From positions 1 through 5,950 of IMG/VR virus record IMGVR_UViG_3300020029_000036: a stretch of 5,950 nucleotides of DNA; one strand, 5' to 3'. Shown one piece after another: positions 1 to 5,950 of the stretch (positions within the stretch are counted from its first letter, which is position 1; the number at the start of each line of letters is the position of its first letter). Position numbers and translations under genes: made by a program. The notes beneath the pieces were generated by a model. It had not been told where the DNA came from, did no database searches, and worked only from the letters and a program-made list of their open reading frames with translations. Origin of the DNA: a virus.

Positions 1-121
1 GCACCGGAAGAAGCAGCCGACTGACCAAGAGCCTGACCAAAAGAGGCGGGAGCGACAACAGGAGCAGGCATACTAAATGTTCGTTAAATTGTTAGAACGA
101 ATAATATAATCAACACGAACA
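1..121. repeat. Terminal redundancy, left copy. Exact duplicate of 5830..5950, created by linearising a circular 5829-nt genome. Contains the first 71 nt (minus strand, ATG at 71..69) of the VP2 gene and the 3' end of the 100-aa ORF.
   Basis: Base-by-base comparison: 1..121 (gcaccggaagaagcagccgactgacc...caacacgaaca) matches 5830..5950, offset 5829. Confidence 0.97.
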
Positions 122-375
122 GTATCGATGTGAACACCACTGCGCTGCATCCTAGCCTGAGCCGAACAAGACGCAAGAAAAAACGCAGATAAAGCGGCTA
201 TTATAGATGAAATAAGAGTCCAAAATGCTTTAGACTTATAGAAAGGTTGTTTAGTAGCAGACATAAAAGTAAAATTTAAAGAACGATAGAAAAATGCGCG
301 GCCTCTCCAGCAGTCGTTACCAATAACCTTCAGCAATTCACGAACTCTTACCGAAGGGGTCCGCGCACGTAGCAT
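73..375 (-). CDS. Small membrane protein, 100 aa. Arg-rich N-terminal 37 aa, one hydrophobic helix (about aa 50-68) ending in a lipobox-like L-A-S-C (aa 67-70, nt 166..177), and a 30-aa C-terminal tail. An alternative start at M38 (ATG 264..262) would give a 63-aa lipoprotein precursor. Function unknown; candidate lysis or exclusion protein.
   Basis: Open frame on the coding strand. It sits 22 nt after the upstream ORF stop, and its stop is 1 nt before the VP2 ATG (TAGTATG). Hydrophobic stretch AFWTLISSIIAALSAFFLA followed by C. CTT GCG TCT TGT verified at 177..166. Confidence 0.55.
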   Translation of the reverse strand: MLRARTPSVRVRELLKVIGNDCWRGRAFFYRSLNFTFMSATKQPFYKSKAFWTLISSIIAALSAFFLASCSAQARMQRSGVHIDTVRVDYIIRSNNLTNI

Positions 376-397
376 ATATCGTCAAGTAAAGTTAGTA

Positions 398-694
398 CTA
401 TTTTTCTTCAGAATTAGAGGGTTTCGAGGTATGCTTCGATCTATCTAACTCTGAATCAATAAGTTCCTGACCAACCTCGAGGCCATCAAACTTATCCATA
501 CGAGAATATGAGTTAGGGTCAAAATCAATTTCGGGATTAAACCTCTCGCCCTTATCAAAATCAGAGGGTTCTACCAGTACGTCTGGACGACCAGGAAGAA
601 CATCAACAGAACCAGAACCATCGAGAACAGAGAGAATACGTTGACCACGAGAAACGTAGGCAGGAGCATCCTCAAGAAGCCAATCAAGTGCCAT
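398..694 (-). CDS. Hypothetical acidic protein, 98 aa, D/E-rich, immediately downstream of the capsid gene. Possible scaffolding-type protein (inference only).
   Basis: ATG lies 12 nt after the VP1 stop, on the same strand as all hallmark genes. No competing ORF other than an antisense one. Confidence 0.6.
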   Translation of the reverse strand: MALDWLLEDAPAYVSRGQRILSVLDGSGSVDVLPGRPDVLVEPSDFDKGERFNPEIDFDPNSYSRMDKFDGLEVGQELIDSELDRSKHTSKPSNSEEK

Positions 695-706
695 AAAATC
701 AATATA

Positions 707-2497
707 TTAGCGGTTAGACAAACGGGTAGCAAATGTTTTATTTACCAAATTCTTCTTCTGAATAGAATACGAAAGATTGACGAAGAAATTGTCTTCTCTC
801 TTAGAGGCGAACGGCGAGTTCACTTGATCCATATCCACAAACAAGAGACTGTAGTACTTATTGTAGCTCGCCGACAAAACACGCTGTTGAACCCAATAAG
901 AATAAAGGGGTACGGTGGTAGCAGAGACTTGGAATCGAGACAGCTGACCAAGAACCTCATCGTAAGAGGATCGAAATTCGTTAAAACACGGTTCGTAAGC
1001 CACGGCTTCCGAGGCTGAAGTTGTTCCAAAACCAAACTGAAATCCAGGAACGTCCTGATATCCAATGTCGTTATAGATCGGATTGAAATAGTCGGGACCA
1101 GTGTAATGAAGATAATCGGGATAAACACCAGCCCAATAGTAAACAGGACGAATGCTCAGCATGTCGATCATATAACCAGGTTCACGGAAATAGTAGGATT
1201 GACGACGACCGAGGCGCTCATTAAAGGCTATAGCGCCGCCTTGCTGGCCAAGAGGTCCGTTACTAGGAGAAGGGGAGAAATTGTTTTGTCCCGACTGACT
1301 CATAACAATCTGTACATTGACGGTCTGGGAGGCACTAAAGAGAAGCTTCGGGCGATCAACGTGCTCAATCTTAGAAGCAAAAAACGTCTCTAACCAATCA
1401 CTATAACGACTACCGCCAGCGCCAAGCAAATCCTTGTATTCCTGAAGTCGAGAAGCAATGGCCAGCTGCGGTATGGTAGAAACGCCAGACATAGAAACAC
1501 CATCAGAGCTACCAACAGGAAGCAGGCGGCTATAACGATCAGGATTCGAAGGCACGACGGCCATCGGGTGAGAAATAAGAAATGCTCCGAGCGTAGTGAC
1601 GGTTGTGGTACCAGCATCAACAGCGTATTGATCCGATGGACCTGCGGTGGTCAATGAGGTGCTACCGGGATAGATAGTAGAGACGGGGTAACCATTCTTA
1701 GAAGCAGTAATCGTGGCACCGAGATCCGAAAGAACTATCTGAGAGAAAAGATTTCCTCTATTATACGTATTATTCGAAGACGGCACGGCCGAAGGATAAA
1801 ACTGACTCTCGAAGTAGGCATCCAGGAACTCGAGGTTGCCAAACCTTTGCGAAAAGAACGTCGACTCGTCTCCAAACTGAAGAACATTATACGCAGAACC
1901 AGCACTATTGGGAATAAAATACCAAGTACTGGGCCAAGCAAAAGAGTAGAGACCCCACTGGGAGTAACTGTAGTAATTGCGAACGATATCCCAATAGGCG
2001 AGATAAGTGTCGGCGGTACACCAACCTAAAGGATACGTCAACTGAGCGGCCGAGAGATTCGGCGACATGGGGACATTACTGGAGGTTGGCGTCGGGATAG
2101 AAGCAGGAATGATGCGCAACCAACGAAGAAGTGAATTGGAATAGGGATAGTTATTGGTGGTATACGCATAAGACCCGGTCGACGAGGCGGCAACAAAGTT
2201 TAAACTCAATTCATTCATATCGAACTTACTGCTATTCGTCCTCATCTCGGGATGATAAAGCTGCAACGGCACCCAAAAACGATGAAGCCGAACAGTGTAG
2301 GGGTTGAATGTCGGAACGGCAAGGGGATTGCTACGAACGTCAATACCCTGCTCGATAGACACACGATCGCGAGCATTAATAAAATCAATCCGCACCGGAT
2401 ACAAAATACCCGGTGTGCACGTAAAAGCTTTGCTCTCAGGAACATCGTAACGAGAGTAGCCGTTCACGGCGTGAGAAATAAAAGGTTGTTTTCCCAT
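707..2497 (-). CDS. VP1: Microviridae major capsid protein (VP1 / F-like), 596 aa.
   Basis: The N-terminal pattern YDVPESKAFTCTPGILYPVRIDFINARDRV...VRSNPLAVPTF...VRLHRFWVPLQLY matches the F-protein N-terminal signature (FD.S....T...G.L.P......PGD...R..P...P......FFVP.R). LAYWDIVRNYY and RLQEYKDLLGAGGSRYSDWLETFFASKIEHVDRPKLL match conserved capsid blocks. Size is typical of non-phiX microviruses. Confidence 0.95.
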   Translation of the reverse strand: MGKQPFISHAVNGYSRYDVPESKAFTCTPGILYPVRIDFINARDRVSIEQGIDVRSNPLAVPTFNPYTVRLHRFWVPLQLYHPEMRTNSSKFDMNELSLNFVAASSTGSYAYTTNNYPYSNSLLRWLRIIPASIPTPTSSNVPMSPNLSAAQLTYPLGWCTADTYLAYWDIVRNYYSYSQWGLYSFAWPSTWYFIPNSAGSAYNVLQFGDESTFFSQRFGNLEFLDAYFESQFYPSAVPSSNNTYNRGNLFSQIVLSDLGATITASKNGYPVSTIYPGSTSLTTAGPSDQYAVDAGTTTVTTLGAFLISHPMAVVPSNPDRYSRLLPVGSSDGVSMSGVSTIPQLAIASRLQEYKDLLGAGGSRYSDWLETFFASKIEHVDRPKLLFSASQTVNVQIVMSQSGQNNFSPSPSNGPLGQQGGAIAFNERLGRRQSYYFREPGYMIDMLSIRPVYYWAGVYPDYLHYTGPDYFNPIYNDIGYQDVPGFQFGFGTTSASEAVAYEPCFNEFRSSYDEVLGQLSRFQVSATTVPLYSYWVQQRVLSASYNKYYSLLFVDMDQVNSPFASKREDNFFVNLSYSIQKKNLVNKTFATRLSNR

Positions 2498-2500
2498 AAA

Positions 2501-3571
2501 TTAAATAATTAGTTGAAGTTTATAATGATCACTCCAAAACTGGAGAATGTCCATATCCAGCCAAGCAGGGGGATCGAAATCGGGCATCTTACGAGAGGAA
2601 GCAGAGAAGCGCATCATTTGCTTTTGCTCCCACGAATATACCGCTCTACGGGATACGGCGGAATCGAGGGAGAACCGCTTAACACACAGAGAAGCAATAC
2701 GTTGAACCAAAGAAGACTTGCTAAAACGTGCGTAAGCATCAGCAGCGGCAACCGAACGAGTAACTTCGTCTTCCGGTTTAAGATATCTAAGATAGTAGCG
2801 AGGGATCGAGTAGTTATAGCTAATCCGCCTTTCAGGATCAAAGTAAGACCACGACGAAACGCGAGCAGAAGGACGAGGCATGTAGCCAAGAAAATCACCA
2901 ACGCCAGCAGATACGAATTTTCGCGTATAACGGCGATGTTGGAGGAGGCAAGATAAAGGTGTAGGATTTCCATTTACGGTAACATATTTATCCGAAATTT
3001 CTTCGGGATTGAACTGAATTTGCTTAGTAACATATTTAACACAGTACCGAGCGCGCTTGTGGGTGGCCTTCGCTAGCCAAACAAAGCCAAGATCTCGAAC
3101 AGCGGAGCGAATAGTATTATAAAGAGTATTCGTAGAAAACAGGAAACCATGAAAATGTAATCGAGGTTCACTTCCCGTCTCAGGGTGAGTACCAAACTCC
3201 TGAAAGAAGGCGTGCTTAAACGAATGACCGAGCTTATGGCGCAAACGCTCGTTGAATCGACGAATGAACCGAGAAGGATCGAGTAACGCTTCGTTATAAT
3301 ACTGCGGAGCAATAGTTATAGTGATAAAAATAGCCTGCTGGCCATTAGCCTTACAACTGGCTAGCTCCCGCTCTAAGCGAACAAACCAATCATTGCGCTG
3401 GCGGCGCAGACAGTCCTCGCATTTACCGCACGGAACCATAAGCCATTGACGAGCGATGTCCCAAGGGCGGAGAGCTAAGGCCGACTTAGCAACATCGGAA
3501 CCATCTCGGCAAGGGTTCTTTTTGTCGAAATAGCGACGATTACGTATCCATATGGGAGATGAGCAGGCCAT
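2501..3571 (-). CDS. VP4: Rolling-circle replication initiator, HUH endonuclease (VP4 / A-like), 356 aa.
   Basis: Motif I-like FITITIAP (aa 82-89). HUH motif H139-F-H141 (CAT TTT CAT verified at 3157..3149). Catalytic tyrosine pair Y176-C-V-K-Y180-V-T-K (TAC TGT GTT AAA TAT verified at 3046..3032), as in phiX174 A (YVAKYVNK). N-terminal PCGKCEDCLRRQRNDW Cys cluster typical of gokusho-like VP4. Confidence 0.93.
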   Translation of the reverse strand: MACSSPIWIRNRRYFDKKNPCRDGSDVAKSALALRPWDIARQWLMVPCGKCEDCLRRQRNDWFVRLERELASCKANGQQAIFITITIAPQYYNEALLDPSRFIRRFNERLRHKLGHSFKHAFFQEFGTHPETGSEPRLHFHGFLFSTNTLYNTIRSAVRDLGFVWLAKATHKRARYCVKYVTKQIQFNPEEISDKYVTVNGNPTPLSCLLQHRRYTRKFVSAGVGDFLGYMPRPSARVSSWSYFDPERRISYNYSIPRYYLRYLKPEDEVTRSVAAADAYARFSKSSLVQRIASLCVKRFSLDSAVSRRAVYSWEQKQMMRFSASSRKMPDFDPPAWLDMDILQFWSDHYKLQLII

Positions 3572-3771
3572 TAGAAAAAGCTTCGTAGGATATCAAATTT
3601 GATACTAGGATGATCAAGACGGCAGCGAATAAGATAATCATTTGCAGGCTCTTCATCGGAGAACCAAGCAATAATAACGCGCTTCTTACCGCGATACGCC
3701 GCAACAGAGAAACGGTAGGAAATATTGTTAATTACAGGGGAAAAACGAGGGCGAAAATCAAAATAATCCAT
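3571..3771 (-). CDS. Hypothetical protein, 66 aa. Its stop overlaps the VP4 start by 1 nt (TAATG).
   Basis: Coding-strand ORF beginning directly after the structured intergenic region. The TAATG junction with VP4 suggests translational coupling. Confidence 0.6.
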   Translation of the reverse strand: MDYFDFRPRFSPVINNISYRFSVAAYRGKKRVIIAWFSDEEPANDYLIRCRLDHPSIKFDILRSFF

Positions 3772-3785
3772 AAAAAAAGTATATA

Positions 3786-3863
3786 CGGGTTAAATGGAAG
3801 AACCCGCAGGGGGGTACCTTACCGCTTCGCGGTGGCCACAGCCTTCGGCTGTCCCCTGGGGTT
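3786..3863. other. GC-rich nested stem-loop element in the 137-nt intergenic region 3772..3908. Hairpin 1: 3786..3791 pairs with 3801..3806, with a 9-nt loop. An outer stem (3807..3812 with 3853..3858) encloses hairpin 2 (3821..3825 with 3829..3833) and hairpin 3 (3838..3843 with 3847..3852). Candidate complementary-strand origin and/or transcription terminator.
   Basis: Complementarity checked base by base. The region is visibly more GC-rich than the rest of the genome and lies in the largest non-coding gap. Confidence 0.6.
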
Positions 3864-3908
3864 CGATTAATTTAAAGAACTTTTCCACCAAGCGGACGGG
3901 TTACTACT

Positions 3909-4232
3909 CTAGTTCCCTTTCCTTTCTTCTTCCGACGGGCTTTCATTGCGATCGATATTAAAATCAAACATAAGAACAAGTGTGTTGTCGAAAAACTCAA
4001 CCGAGAACTTCGGGTAAGAAGCCAGGGTCGCCACGAAGCCGGCGACTGACTGGTGCTTGACGTAGGGTGATTTCGAAATATCCGAAGTCAAGAAATAATC
4101 AAAAACAGGAGTGTCCGAAAGAATATCAAGAGGCAGCTGCGAAAACTGGCCATCCTTAATACAGCCGACCTGGACGAGGTCAATGTCAAGAGCCGGATTT
4201 ACACGGCGAAGAACAACATGAATCTGTGTCAT
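3909..4232 (-). CDS. Hypothetical protein, 107 aa, with an acidic C-terminal tail (ESPSEEERKGN).
   Basis: Coding-strand ORF starting 11 nt after the upstream ORF stop. No recognisable motif. Confidence 0.65.
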   Translation of the reverse strand: MTQIHVVLRRVNPALDIDLVQVGCIKDGQFSQLPLDILSDTPVFDYFLTSDISKSPYVKHQSVAGFVATLASYPKFSVEFFDNTLVLMFDFNIDRNESPSEEERKGN

Positions 4233-4243
4233 AACAACATAAT

Positions 4244-4561
4244 TTAAAATTCCTTTCGAAGATTAATACAAAAACGACGCCAGTCGGAAGAAATGCCGGA
4301 CCAAAAGTCGAGGCCTTCAGGCGTTCTGTTAAATACAAAACTGCTAGTAATAAGATCGCTTATACCGAGACTAGACGCGAGAAGCAGAATACGAATTTGG
4401 CAGCGAAGCGAATCCCGAAATGAGATAACAACATCCTTAGTCAAGCTGTAATTCGACTTAAAGGCGGAAAACACCCCTCGACGACAAAGCCACTCGATAA
4501 ACAGGTGCTCTACGAAATCGACCGGCAATTCACTAATACTTGAATCTTTGTTCTTTTTCAT
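4244..4561 (-). CDS. Hypothetical protein, 105 aa, from MKKNKD (ATG 4561..4559). The frame stays open upstream to an ATG at 4693 (149 aa), which would overlap the VP2 3' end by 53 nt. C-terminal Trp/Phe-rich motif FVFNRTPEGLDFWSGISSDWRRF.
   Basis: Coding-strand ORF. I prefer the shorter start because the extension runs through the promoter-like intergenic region and into VP2. The start remains ambiguous. Confidence 0.6.
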   Translation of the reverse strand: MKKNKDSSISELPVDFVEHLFIEWLCRRGVFSAFKSNYSLTKDVVISFRDSLRCQIRILLLASSLGISDLITSSFVFNRTPEGLDFWSGISSDWRRFCINLRKEF

Positions 4562-4586
4562 AATAATGTGGTTATTGGTTACGATG

Positions 4587-4617
4587 CAAACGTACAACGC
4601 AGGGCCCAAAATGCAAA
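4587..4617 (-). promoter_or_regulatory. Candidate Bacteroidetes-type promoter. On the minus strand, TTTG (4617..4614), a 19-nt spacer, then TACGTTTG (4594..4587), about 25 nt upstream of the ATG at 4561.
   Basis: The plus strand reads caaacgta-N19-caaa. Among the TAnnTTTG matches I found by eye, this is the only one in a non-coding gap and the only one with a correctly spaced -33 TTTG. Confidence 0.4.
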
Positions 4618-4640
4618 GTTCAAAAAGTCGAAAAAGTTGT

Positions 4641-5900
4641 CTAATTTCGCCTAAACATACTGCGACGAGTATGTGTGGCGCCAATCTGATCACCGTCAGG
4701 ACCGTAAAACTCTTTCATTTCATCATAACCTTCCGGGCCGGCGGGGCCTGCCGCCTTACGGCCAACATAGGAGGCGCCGGCGATACCTGCAGCAGTAGCG
4801 AAAGATCGAAGAATGTCATAACCAAGGCGGTTTTTCGAATTCCGCAAATCCCAACGAACATTGCCAGTTTCAAGTTGAGCAGTTTCAGCAGCAGAAGCCT
4901 TTAGAATAGCCAAAGTTTCGGCCACTTTCATTACCCTCGTCTCAACAACTTCGCCTTTATCATTGCGAATCTGTACGGGAACTTCCTTTTCCCAGTTCAG
5001 CTCGTACCACTTCTGCAAATCCTTGAGTTGCTGAGCGTTAAGTTCAATACGAGACTCTGATTCAGCGGCTGCCGAAAGGTGAGCAAGAGCAGAACTCCAG
5101 GCGACAGCAAGTGACGCGCCGGCTTCGGGTTCGAACCAATCATTGGTTTTGCGAAGGTTTAGATACTTCTCTTCTAGAATACCGGCCATAGCCATAATGG
5201 AAGACAACTTATAACCTTGCGTAATGTTGGCTAGATAAGCGTCGATCGCCACAATTTGCGCCTGCGCCTCGCGAAGATTGGCAAGCTCACGAGCGTCCTT
5301 AACATTGTGCTCGGCAATCTGCAACTCAAGTCGATCCATTTGCTCTCGCCAGTCTTGAGTGTGAGTATTACCTCGAAGATTATCAGCTTCTGCCTCATCT
5401 CGATCAGCGGCGGCAGTATTACGATCAACCGTAGATTGTGCAACCATATTTTGCGCGATAGCAGAAGGGTCGCCCGGAGCGAAGCCACCGGGAGCGATCG
5501 GGGAGCCGCCCGAAGGTCCAGAAGCAGCGGGCGTAGACGCGGAACCACCTGACATAGTAGCGTTTACACCAACACCAGAAGAACCTAAAACAGCAGCAGG
5601 AGTTACGCCAGCCTTCAAATAACGATCGAAAACCTTTGTAGGGTCATTGTAGGCATTCTCATAATCGAACTGTTTTTGCCAGTTAGAATAGGAAAGTTCA
5701 GATTGTTTTTGCATCTGCTCTAAAGCGTACCTCTGCTGAAGAGCCATTTGTTTTTGCTGAAATTTCCATTGCCGGCGGGCGTTCATACCTCCGAAAAGCT
5801 GACCGAGGGCGCCGGAGATCAAACCCGTAGCACCGGAAGAAGCAGCCGACTGACCAAGAGCCTGACCAAAAGAGGCGGGAGCGACAACAGGAGCAGGCAT
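4641..5900 (-). CDS. VP2: Minor capsid / DNA pilot protein (VP2 / H-like), 419 aa.
   Basis: Gly/Ala/Ser-rich N-terminus and a Q-rich segment. YENAYNDPTKVFDRYLKAGVTPAAVLG resembles the conserved VP2 block (N.AY......lk.AG.NP). Long central region rich in charged residues, Ala and Leu that looks predicted-helical or coiled-coil. Size and position relative to VP1 and VP4 fit. Confidence 0.85.
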   Translation of the reverse strand: MPAPVVAPASFGQALGQSAASSGATGLISGALGQLFGGMNARRQWKFQQKQMALQQRYALEQMQKQSELSYSNWQKQFDYENAYNDPTKVFDRYLKAGVTPAAVLGSSGVGVNATMSGGSASTPAASGPSGGSPIAPGGFAPGDPSAIAQNMVAQSTVDRNTAAADRDEAEADNLRGNTHTQDWREQMDRLELQIAEHNVKDARELANLREAQAQIVAIDAYLANITQGYKLSSIMAMAGILEEKYLNLRKTNDWFEPEAGASLAVAWSSALAHLSAAAESESRIELNAQQLKDLQKWYELNWEKEVPVQIRNDKGEVVETRVMKVAETLAILKASAAETAQLETGNVRWDLRNSKNRLGYDILRSFATAAGIAGASYVGRKAAGPAGPEGYDEMKEFYGPDGDQIGATHTRRSMFRRN

Positions 5901-5950
5901 ACTAAATGTTCGTTAAATTGTTAGAACGAATAATATAATCAACACGAACA
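5830..5950. repeat. Terminal redundancy, right copy (identical to 1..121).
   Basis: Exact 121-nt identity with the window start. Confidence 0.97.

Follow-up and report, generated by a model that had tools for sequence, protein, structure and literature searches.

Few phages of the mammalian gut are as abundant as microviruses. Within this group, the mechanism of lysis is known for phiX174 only (PMC3394797), and the first isolate infecting Bacteroidota was reported in late 2025 (PMC13064476). In this work, we describe a 63-codon gene, predicted to encode a small lipoprotein, in the microvirus record IMGVR_UViG_3300020029_000036 of IMG/VR, of which we analyzed positions 1 to 5,950 (hereafter the window), and we compare it with the small lipoproteins and lysis proteins already described. 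The gene lies at positions 264..73 of the minus strand, as do all features discussed below, and we tentatively propose, with a probability of about 0.4, that its product is an effector of lysis or progeny release.

Colicin lysis proteins, or BRPs (Lysis_col; ColE1 Kil, CloDF13 BRP), are the closest of the known systems in size and logic. They are encoded by very small replicons as precursors of ~45–60 amino acids (aa) with a signal for signal peptidase II (SPase II), and their mature parts have ~28–35 aa; the window gene is alike in all this, having a 31-aa mature peptide and a 5.8-kb genome. The signal peptide is unusually conserved or stable in both, and in both the proposed outcome is permeabilization of the envelope and release; the colicin proteins bring about quasi-lysis by activating an outer-membrane phospholipase. 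The window gene differs in its probable host (Bacteroidota instead of Enterobacteria) and in standing outside a colicin operon. Moreover, its mature core looks like a specific binding motif, whereas the colicin type is a Gly/Ser-rich peptide. Searches of Pfam, including Lysis_col and the entericidin family, with four family members gave no match at E values up to 10. In size (63-aa precursor, 31-aa mature peptide) the product is also near entericidin B, a bacteriolytic lipoprotein whose precursor has ~48 aa and whose mature lipopeptide is very short. Entericidin B, however, belongs to a chromosomal toxin/antidote pair of Enterobacteria and its mature peptide is amphipathic-helical, whereas a strand-like alternating pattern is more likely than an amphipathic helix for the mature peptide of the window.

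T5 Llp and the Cor family are superinfection-exclusion lipoproteins, Llp acting on FhuA and Cor being known from lambdoid phages. Like them, the window product is a small lipoprotein of phages, lytic and temperate, with a predicted location facing the periplasm, and could bind an outer-membrane receptor from the inside. Its mature peptide is about half as long (31 against ~60 aa), no homology was found in Pfam, PHROGs, NCBIfam or PDB-sequence searches, and the window gene behaves as a core gene whose type does not follow capsid or pilot protein. With phiX174 E and the other Sgl proteins ("amurins") it shares being a small membrane-targeted protein of a tiny lytic phage without endolysin, plausibly a "protein antibiotic" directed at a conserved target in the host. 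E is an uncleaved protein with an N-terminal transmembrane (TM) segment, encoded out of frame within gene D, whereas the window gene stands alone and has a lipobox; the E-type architecture is found here in another open reading frame (ORF), the ORF-M inside the Rep gene, described below. A paper on single-gene lysis has no mention of lipoproteins (PMC7693330). Finally, o-spanins of the Rz1 type and u-spanins are phage lipoproteins of 40–60 aa that act in the last step of lysis, but the window has no i-spanin partner, endolysin, recognized holin or C-terminal TM segment, and the peptide is not proline-rich.

The window lipoprotein is thus most like a colicin release or T5 Llp-type lipoprotein in its working and is a member of neither family. 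It is a small lipoprotein of the phage/plasmid type with its own sequence family, and no such protein has been described for the virus family that carries it: the literature on microviruses and Alpavirinae yielded no description of a microvirus lipoprotein, an automatic database label being the only trace.

A Conserved Gene with a Lipoprotein Signal

The gene consists of 63 codons, starting with an ATG at 264-262 and ending with a TAG at 75-73. Its translation, MSATKQPFYKSKAFWTLISSIIAALSAFFLASCSAQARMQRSGVHIDTVRVDYIIRSNNLTNI, matches exactly the sequence and coordinates given in an earlier note on this DNA. A protein search returned 407 homologues. We retrieved 80 IMG/VR loci plus GenBank genomes and compared 81 distinct sequences, in all of which the gene is 192 nt long and keeps Met1 (M38 of a longer, 100-aa ORF) and Cys33. 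Positional entropy over the 81 sequences is 0.25/0.13/1.07 at codon positions 1/2/3. The ratio of nonsynonymous to synonymous substitution (dN/dS, Nei-Gojobori) is 0.064 overall, 0.035 in the n-region, 0.039 in the hydrophobic core and 0.008 in the conserved mature core GVHIDTVRVDYIIRSNN (residues 43-59; 88..138), the last four residues alone being relaxed (0.49). This pattern indicates that 264..73 is a real gene under strong purifying selection. Absence or disruption in close relatives had been named in the earlier note as an observation that would refute its reading, and the ORF is intact in every relative examined (81/81 loci) and also in 16/16 of the family-bearing complete genomes examined. 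We are highly confident that 264..73 is a real gene for an exported, Cys-dependent small membrane protein or lipoprotein.

The predicted signal peptide (residues 1-32; 169..264) has an n-region with three Lys, MSATKQPFYKSK, followed by the core AFWTLISSIIAALSAFF (residues 13-29) and by L-A-S (residues 30-32). The uncharged stretch covers the 20 residues from 13 to 32 and ends with this L-A-S, just before Cys33 (TGT codon, 168-166), the predicted site of acylation and cleavage. A rule scripted after PROSITE PS51257 (K or R in the first seven residues, six uncharged residues, lipobox [LVI][ASTVI][GAS]-C, Cys at 15-35) fits the protein by K5 (also K10 and K12), the core A13-S32 and L-A-S-C33. Two Met-initiated ORFs of at least 30 aa on the two strands of the window fit this rule, namely 264..73 and an unconserved out-of-frame ORF inside the VP1 gene. 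The lipobox motif alone is weak evidence, worth about one chance match per genome, and it is because of its conservation, not of the motif alone, that the gene rises above chance.

The lipoprotein-type signal noticed earlier in the single sequence is supported across the family. Lipobox and Cys are conserved in 269 of the 276 retrieved sequences with the FW motif of the signal peptide; the exceptions are one C-to-S variant and sequences that are frameshifted, truncated or unrelated. Position -1 is S, G or A in 261/269 and position -3 is Leu in 207/269, and residues F14, W15, T16, L17, A24, L25, A27 and F29 are invariant in an alignment across mature types (A2). Weak, sub-threshold matches to lipoprotein signal regions in NCBIfam were the only family matches.

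We found two types of signal peptide, A (KSKAFWTLISSIIAALSAFFLASC) and B (SKKFWTLVASIVAALAAYFATSC), and at least three types of mature peptide (at least three to four among close relatives): type 1, SAQARxxRSGVHIDTVRVDYIIRSNN; type 2, TARHYVVQSASSxKSGDTTRTTITYEQxGNFKRP; and type 3, AAATYTRSHGVHCDTVLIExKSRTKNY. Hybrids are joined exactly at the Cys, with signal A before mature type 2 (P0205) or signal B before type 1 (P0213, P0215). In more distant members (P0280, P0283, P0284, P0286, P0289, P0290), the same mature peptides stand behind unrelated signal peptides that have the lipobox alone in common, and the conserved core motif is found both behind such signal peptides and in phages with VP1 less than 30% identical. 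Because unrelated signal peptides precede the same mature peptide, the latter is independent of one particular signal sequence. A Cys that serves for processing and anchoring where two exchangeable functional modules meet would be expected to give such a build, and we regard it as the strongest argument for a lipoprotein.

The predicted mature lipopeptide, CSAQARMQRSGVHIDTVRVDYIIRSNNLTNI (31 aa; 76..168), has SAQAR at +2 to +6, four Arg, two Asp and one His, giving a net charge of about +2, and no second hydrophobic segment. Surface lipoproteins of Bacteroidota need K-(D/E)2, Q-A-(D/E)2 or SDDDD after the Cys (PMC5080379). Acidic residues are absent from +2 to +5 in the window peptide and in the family members that keep the Cys (0/269), and because this surface-export signal is lacking, the mature peptide is predicted to face the periplasm.

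Distribution among Microviruses

The earlier note considered either of the roles that it proposed unusual for Microviridae; by our searches, the gene itself is not a rarity. The family comprises at least 575 proteins in 77 clusters and occurs in at least three microvirus lineages. A 16-member profile retrieved the 575 proteins from a 90%-clustered collection and, among 1.84 billion representatives, 77 clusters at 50% identity; every genomic context inspected was that of a microvirus. Lineage 1, to which the window belongs, has the order Rep-VP1-~100 aa-lipoprotein-VP2 and VP1 proteins 60–75% identical to that of the window. Lineage 2 has the order VP1-~100 aa-VP2-small ORFs-lipoprotein-X-Rep, its VP1 and Rep being less than 30% identical to those of the window, and lineage 3 is a 5.0-kb genome (L194/L196) with the lipoprotein gene directly before VP2. 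The lipoprotein module is ~70% identical across these lineages, whose VP1 and Rep are less than 30% identical. The mature type is also independent of VP1/VP2 similarity, such that the VP1 nearest to that of the window belongs to a type-2 phage.

A copy of lineage 2 was found in a 5.73-kb prophage within an 840-kb scaffold of Alistipes montrealensis (Bacteroidales, Rikenellaceae), flanked by host genes. The VP1 of this prophage is 23% identical to that of the window, as against 73% for the lipoprotein module. The prophage (L089, A. montrealensis kh20 scaffold1) is bounded by a 21-nt direct repeat, TTACTATTATGTTAAAT(A/T)ATA, at 5878-5898 and 11608-11628, 5,730 nt apart, and between the repeats it carries lipoprotein-X-Rep-VP1-112 aa-VP2. 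The repeats resemble attachment or dif-like sites, and the same scaffold has a third, diverged copy at 4935-4955. This was the one prophage copy among 185,579 species genomes searched with the lipoprotein profile, and the lipoprotein profile alone gave a genome match, the window VP1 giving none in the species genomes.

By these contexts, the module appears specific to microviruses and moves between distant members of the group. The hosts are probably restricted to Bacteroidota, and that of the window phage is probably a gut member of Bacteroidales, with Alistipes as the probable genus.

The lipoprotein frame of lineage 2 frequently remains open over ~130 further codons, crossing the real-looking gene X in another frame (L170 1512-2114; L174 4670-5317; L089 5977-6585; L180-L185 ~301-891). 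These long forms, with a putative product of ~200 aa, terminate just before Rep with a J-like tail, RRGGRKGRPKGTKTVPLGGSHL, which is conserved but lacks a separate ATG. The lipoprotein ORF of L178 has its own stop.

The annotation of the family in public databases is poor. Our tblastn search found it in 32 GenBank microvirus records, in most of which the gene is unannotated, called "hypothetical" or covered by a "similar to VP2" feature. Records are inconsistent with one another (GenBank MG945498, MG945680, MG945683, MG945716 and others), and most call a 100-aa protein. In nr, two entries were automatically named "MAG TPA: lipoprotein [Microviridae sp.]," and a further record is labeled, spuriously, "chitin synthase regulator."

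Possible Functions

According to the lysis or release reading, the precursor would be exported, modified with diacylglyceryl by Lgt and cleaved by LspA before Cys33, yielding a 31-residue lipid-anchored peptide that stays at the periplasmic face of the envelope. Through its near-invariant core the peptide would bind a conserved envelope component of the host, and it might act as a lipid-anchored "protein antibiotic" against a periplasm-exposed step of wall synthesis or, alternatively, destabilize the envelope as colicin release lipoproteins do. With its gene lying downstream of the structured element described below, it would probably be produced along with VP2 and in small amounts. The behavior of a core gene in all three lineages is consistent with this role, as are a module common to lineages with VP1 and Rep less than 30% identical and a mature type that tracks neither VP1 nor VP2. 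The size of the product, near that of colicin lysis proteins and entericidin B as established for these, also points this way. In the minimal 5.0-kb genome L196, no called gene besides that of the lipoprotein has a hydrophobic segment. An M15 peptidase or other recognizable lysin was found in 0/16 of the family-bearing complete genomes, and the window itself has no recognizable endolysin, as the earlier note had observed. M15 is present in more than 100 GenBank microviruses. The M15-bearing phiHBP1 of Bacteroides fragilis and two relatives have no member of the lipoprotein family. We considered phiHBP1 as a relative of the window phage and rejected it, as it belongs to another lineage, having an M15 peptidase but not the lipoprotein.

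Several observations weigh against a lysis role. The exclusivity between M15 and the lipoprotein comes from a small sample (16 vs. 3 genomes), and chance would produce it in about one case out of ten. The single-gene lysis proteins known so far typically evolve fast and are diverse and lineage-specific (PMC7693330), whereas the window lipoprotein shows high conservation and horizontal sharing. Searches of Pfam, PHROGs, NCBIfam and PDB sequences with the 63-aa protein and its relatives gave no match, by sequence or profile, to known lysis lipoproteins. As an SPase II signal the protein has a long hydrophobic core (20 residues, with the Cys at 33, near the upper limit of the rule) that is as constrained as the mature core, the helix predicted by AlphaFold runs unbroken through the lipobox, and seven family members have Glu at position -2. 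In addition, by analogy with phiX174 E, ORF-M is an equally good lysis candidate in this lineage, and because it competes we have lower confidence in the lipoprotein alone as the lysis gene. A wider proposal extends this role to the family as a whole, which would serve lysis or release in a large group of microviruses of gut Bacteroidales, acting as a periplasmic-side lipopeptide on a conserved envelope target; it is a little more tentative than that for the window gene.

Superinfection exclusion or protection of the progeny is a possible function as well, if a more doubtful one than lysis. The lipopeptide would bind the phage's outer-membrane receptor or the route of the VP2 pilot tube, so that related phages would be blocked and released virions spared inactivation on debris or outer-membrane vesicles. 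The product is a small phage lipoprotein without a surface-export signal, with a topology as in Llp, and its gene is directly upstream of the pilot gene VP2 in two unrelated lineages. The presence of at least three to four exchangeable mature types among close relatives is a pattern common in host-interface genes, and the horizontal movement between distant microviruses that probably share hosts also fits this function, as does the copy in a prophage, beside a putative attachment repeat. Nevertheless, the gene behaves as core, not accessory, being found at 81/81 loci and missing from no complete genome that we examined of the clade, and the prophage copy is a single one among 185,579 species genomes. 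No similarity to the Llp or Cor families was found in Pfam or PHROGs. Moreover, the same mature peptide occurs with capsids less than 30% identical and its type does not follow VP1/VP2, which is unexpected for receptor-matched specificity.

Two further readings differ from lysis by the lipopeptide in how the product sits in, or acts on, the envelope, and both seem unlikely to us. In the first, the peptide would take part in a two-component release, in which a holin-like ORF-M permeabilizes the inner membrane and the lipopeptide acts on the wall or outer membrane, or it would help VP2 or a J-like peptide in assembly or DNA delivery. The co-occurrence of the lipoprotein and ORF-M throughout lineage 1 suggests such a role, and the adjacency to VP2 with a stop-N-ATG junction and the lineage-2 frame that often runs into a J-like basic tail are consistent with it. 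However, the lipoprotein occurs without ORF-M in lineages 2 and 3, cytoplasmic assembly would be out of reach for a periplasmic lipopeptide, and a stop-poor overprinted frame may account for the long forms. Less likely still is an uncleaved bitopic protein, with a signal anchor oriented N-in and C-out, whose conserved TM helix would be the active part, as in phiX174 E or a small holin/antiholin, the Cys being kept for disulfide formation or helix packing. We retain this reading because the core is long and constrained (dN/dS 0.039 over 20 residues, with the same invariant residues across mature types) and the AlphaFold helix is continuous; AlphaFold2, run on a 16-sequence alignment, predicts one helix over residues 12-40 with a confidence score (pLDDT) of ~89, the mature part having a pLDDT below 50. 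The Glu at -2 of some members would also suit an uncleaved anchor. Against this, the Cys always comes directly after a small-residue lipobox (-1 is S/G/A in 261/269), the module boundary falls exactly at the Cys, and the same mature peptide follows unrelated signal peptides with the lipobox alone in common.

An Overlapping Membrane ORF inside Rep

The lipoprotein gene had been described in the earlier note as encoding the only convincing membrane protein of the genome. This part of the note did not stand, since a conserved multi-helix ORF of 119 aa, ORF-M, is present inside the Rep gene (2973..2614, +1 frame of Rep). In addition, VP2-like proteins have been reported to have N-terminal TM domains (PMC3394797). 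ORF-M was found by scanning eight complete genomes for out-of-frame ORFs with hydrophobic segments. Its sequence, MEILHLYLASSNIAVIRENSYLLALVIFLATCLVLLLAFRRGLTLILKGGLAITTRSLATILDILNRKTKLLVRLPLLMLTHVLASLLWFNVLLLCVLSGSPSIPPYPVERYIRGSKSK, starts with ATG and has two to three predicted helices and a basic C-terminal tail. The frame is open from end to end in all eight genomes (116–129 aa), and among distinct Rep genes from IMG/VR 76/76 retain both its ATG and the open frame, as do nine GenBank genomes. Third-position entropy of Rep falls from ~1.0–1.1 to 0.13–0.74 over Rep nt 540-960 and is back to 1.05 at the embedded stop (nt 958); the dip starts ~60 nt before the ATG of ORF-M (Rep nt 598). When synonymous codons were shuffled, an ORF of this length was not significant by itself (173/5000), and the case for ORF-M therefore rests on its conservation and on the suppressed synonymous change. 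These data make ORF-M a probable overlapping gene, and its predicted shape is holin-like or E-like.

Homologues of ORF-M were found in two more divergent genomes of lineage 1 and not in lineage 2; in lineage 3, no called gene except the lipoprotein has a hydrophobic segment, embedded ORFs not having been searched there. ORF-M matched no Pfam or PHROG family.

The Start Codon and an Upstream Structured Element

The 100-aa ORF (375..73) would have a 37-residue basic cytoplasmic N-domain, and gene callers report it for most relatives, its frame being open in ~83% of them. We consider it very improbable that this is the true product and rejected it on comparative data. The first 111 nt lack codon periodicity (entropy 0.26/0.27/0.30) and are conserved more than coding third positions. 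The upstream frame is broken in ~14/81 relatives by stops (including a TAA directly before the ATG), by 1-2-nt loop indels or by 30–100-nt insertions, whereas the frame from M38 to the stop is intact in all of them. The Cys would also fall at position 70, outside any lipoprotein rule. The preference for M38 expressed in the earlier note was thus correct, the upstream 111 nt being non-coding by these comparisons.

The fold of this region is a long, imperfect hairpin (-37 kcal/mol, z = -2.1), with an outer stem of 383-377 paired with 288-282 and an inner stem of 368-361 paired with 301-294, followed by a T-run. RNAalifold on 72 distinct sequences revealed compensatory changes, also within the first 111 nt of the 100-aa ORF, with the pairs UA 52/CG 16; CG 38/UA 20/UG 13; AU 51/GC 10/GU 9; and GC 59/GU 7/AU 6. 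The whole 133-nt element (265..397), located between a 98-aa ORF and the lipoprotein gene, has the conserved 5' sequence CTTTACTTGACGATATATGCTACG. Neither an RNA family nor a tRNA was found in it when the window was searched with Rfam and ARAGORN, and a simple terminator scan left the hairpin uncalled, its loop being too long for the rule of the scan. We take the element to be structured and non-coding; it may be a replication origin, a complementary-strand priming site, an attenuator or a leaky terminator. In six relatives (L046, L065, L068, L071, L072, L074), a GC-rich insert of ~96 nt with hairpins of its own (e.g., GCGGTTCGGAGAACCGC) lies between the conserved element and the lipoprotein ATG; L040 and L070 have a shorter version.

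Genome Layout

The window is a circularly permuted genome of a 5,829-nt circle, as bases 1-121 recur at 5830-5950. The two ends are redundant by these 121 nt, so that there are two copies of 73-121, the 3' end of the lipoprotein gene. Every gene is on the minus strand, which is T-rich (31.8%). The assignment to microviruses made in the earlier note agrees with the matches to the Phage_F capsid, Rep and pilot protein. The genome has an F-type capsid, an HUH Rep, a pilot protein and genes on one strand of a circle of ~5–6 kb, as do Microviridae (PF02305, PF23343, phrog_514, phrog_942, phrog_8689), and we found 64 GenBank microvirus relatives.

The Rep/VP4 gene (3571..2501; PF23343, phrog_942) is followed by the major capsid gene VP1 (2497..707; PF02305, phrog_514) and by the acidic 98-aa ORF (694..398) that lies between VP1 and the 133-nt intergenic element. 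Next come the lipoprotein gene and the pilot gene VP2 (phrog_8689), which runs from 71..1 joined to 5829..4641, with its ATG at 69-71 and an uninterrupted copy at 5900..4641. After VP2 there are, in this order, ORFs of 105 aa and 107 aa, a J-like ORF of 24 codons and an ORF of 66 aa. The 24-codon ORF (3872-3946) reads MKARRKKKGKGTRVVTRPLGGKVL and has equivalents in L087 and L088, being unannotated in relatives. By its composition, we take it to resemble protein J of the phiX174 group, a small basic DNA-binding protein.

A Shine-Dalgarno motif was found before no gene of the window, and the upstream regions are 68–88% A+T, a pattern that would be expected for a phage of Bacteroidota. The three lineages likewise lack such motifs. 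Between the stop of the lipoprotein gene and the ATG of VP2 there is a gap of one base (TAG-T-ATG, 69-75), and the unrelated 5.0-kb microvirus L196 has the same kind of junction (TGA-T-ATG, 3319-3325). Because this stop-N-ATG junction occurs in two unrelated lineages without Shine-Dalgarno motifs, it is plausible that translation of VP2 is coupled to the small ORF by termination-reinitiation.

Implications

In practical terms, many database records are affected by the present results, since the gene appears in them as a 100-aa miscall, under a "similar to VP2" feature or not at all. If the lipoprotein is a lysis effector, it would be, to our knowledge, the first single-gene lysis protein of the lipoprotein type and the first lysis gene for microviruses outside the phiX group that lack an M15 peptidase, with ORF-M as its partner or as a second, independent lysis gene. 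Its near-invariant 17-residue core would then mark a weak point of the Bacteroidales envelope that is conserved and accessible from the periplasm. Were it instead to serve in exclusion, no smaller exclusion factor would be known, and it would be the first one of Microviridae. The 5.8-kb genome offers two concrete candidates for a lysis gene, the 63-codon lipoprotein gene and the 119-codon ORF-M, and with both at hand the way by which microviruses other than phiX leave or shield their hosts becomes directly testable.

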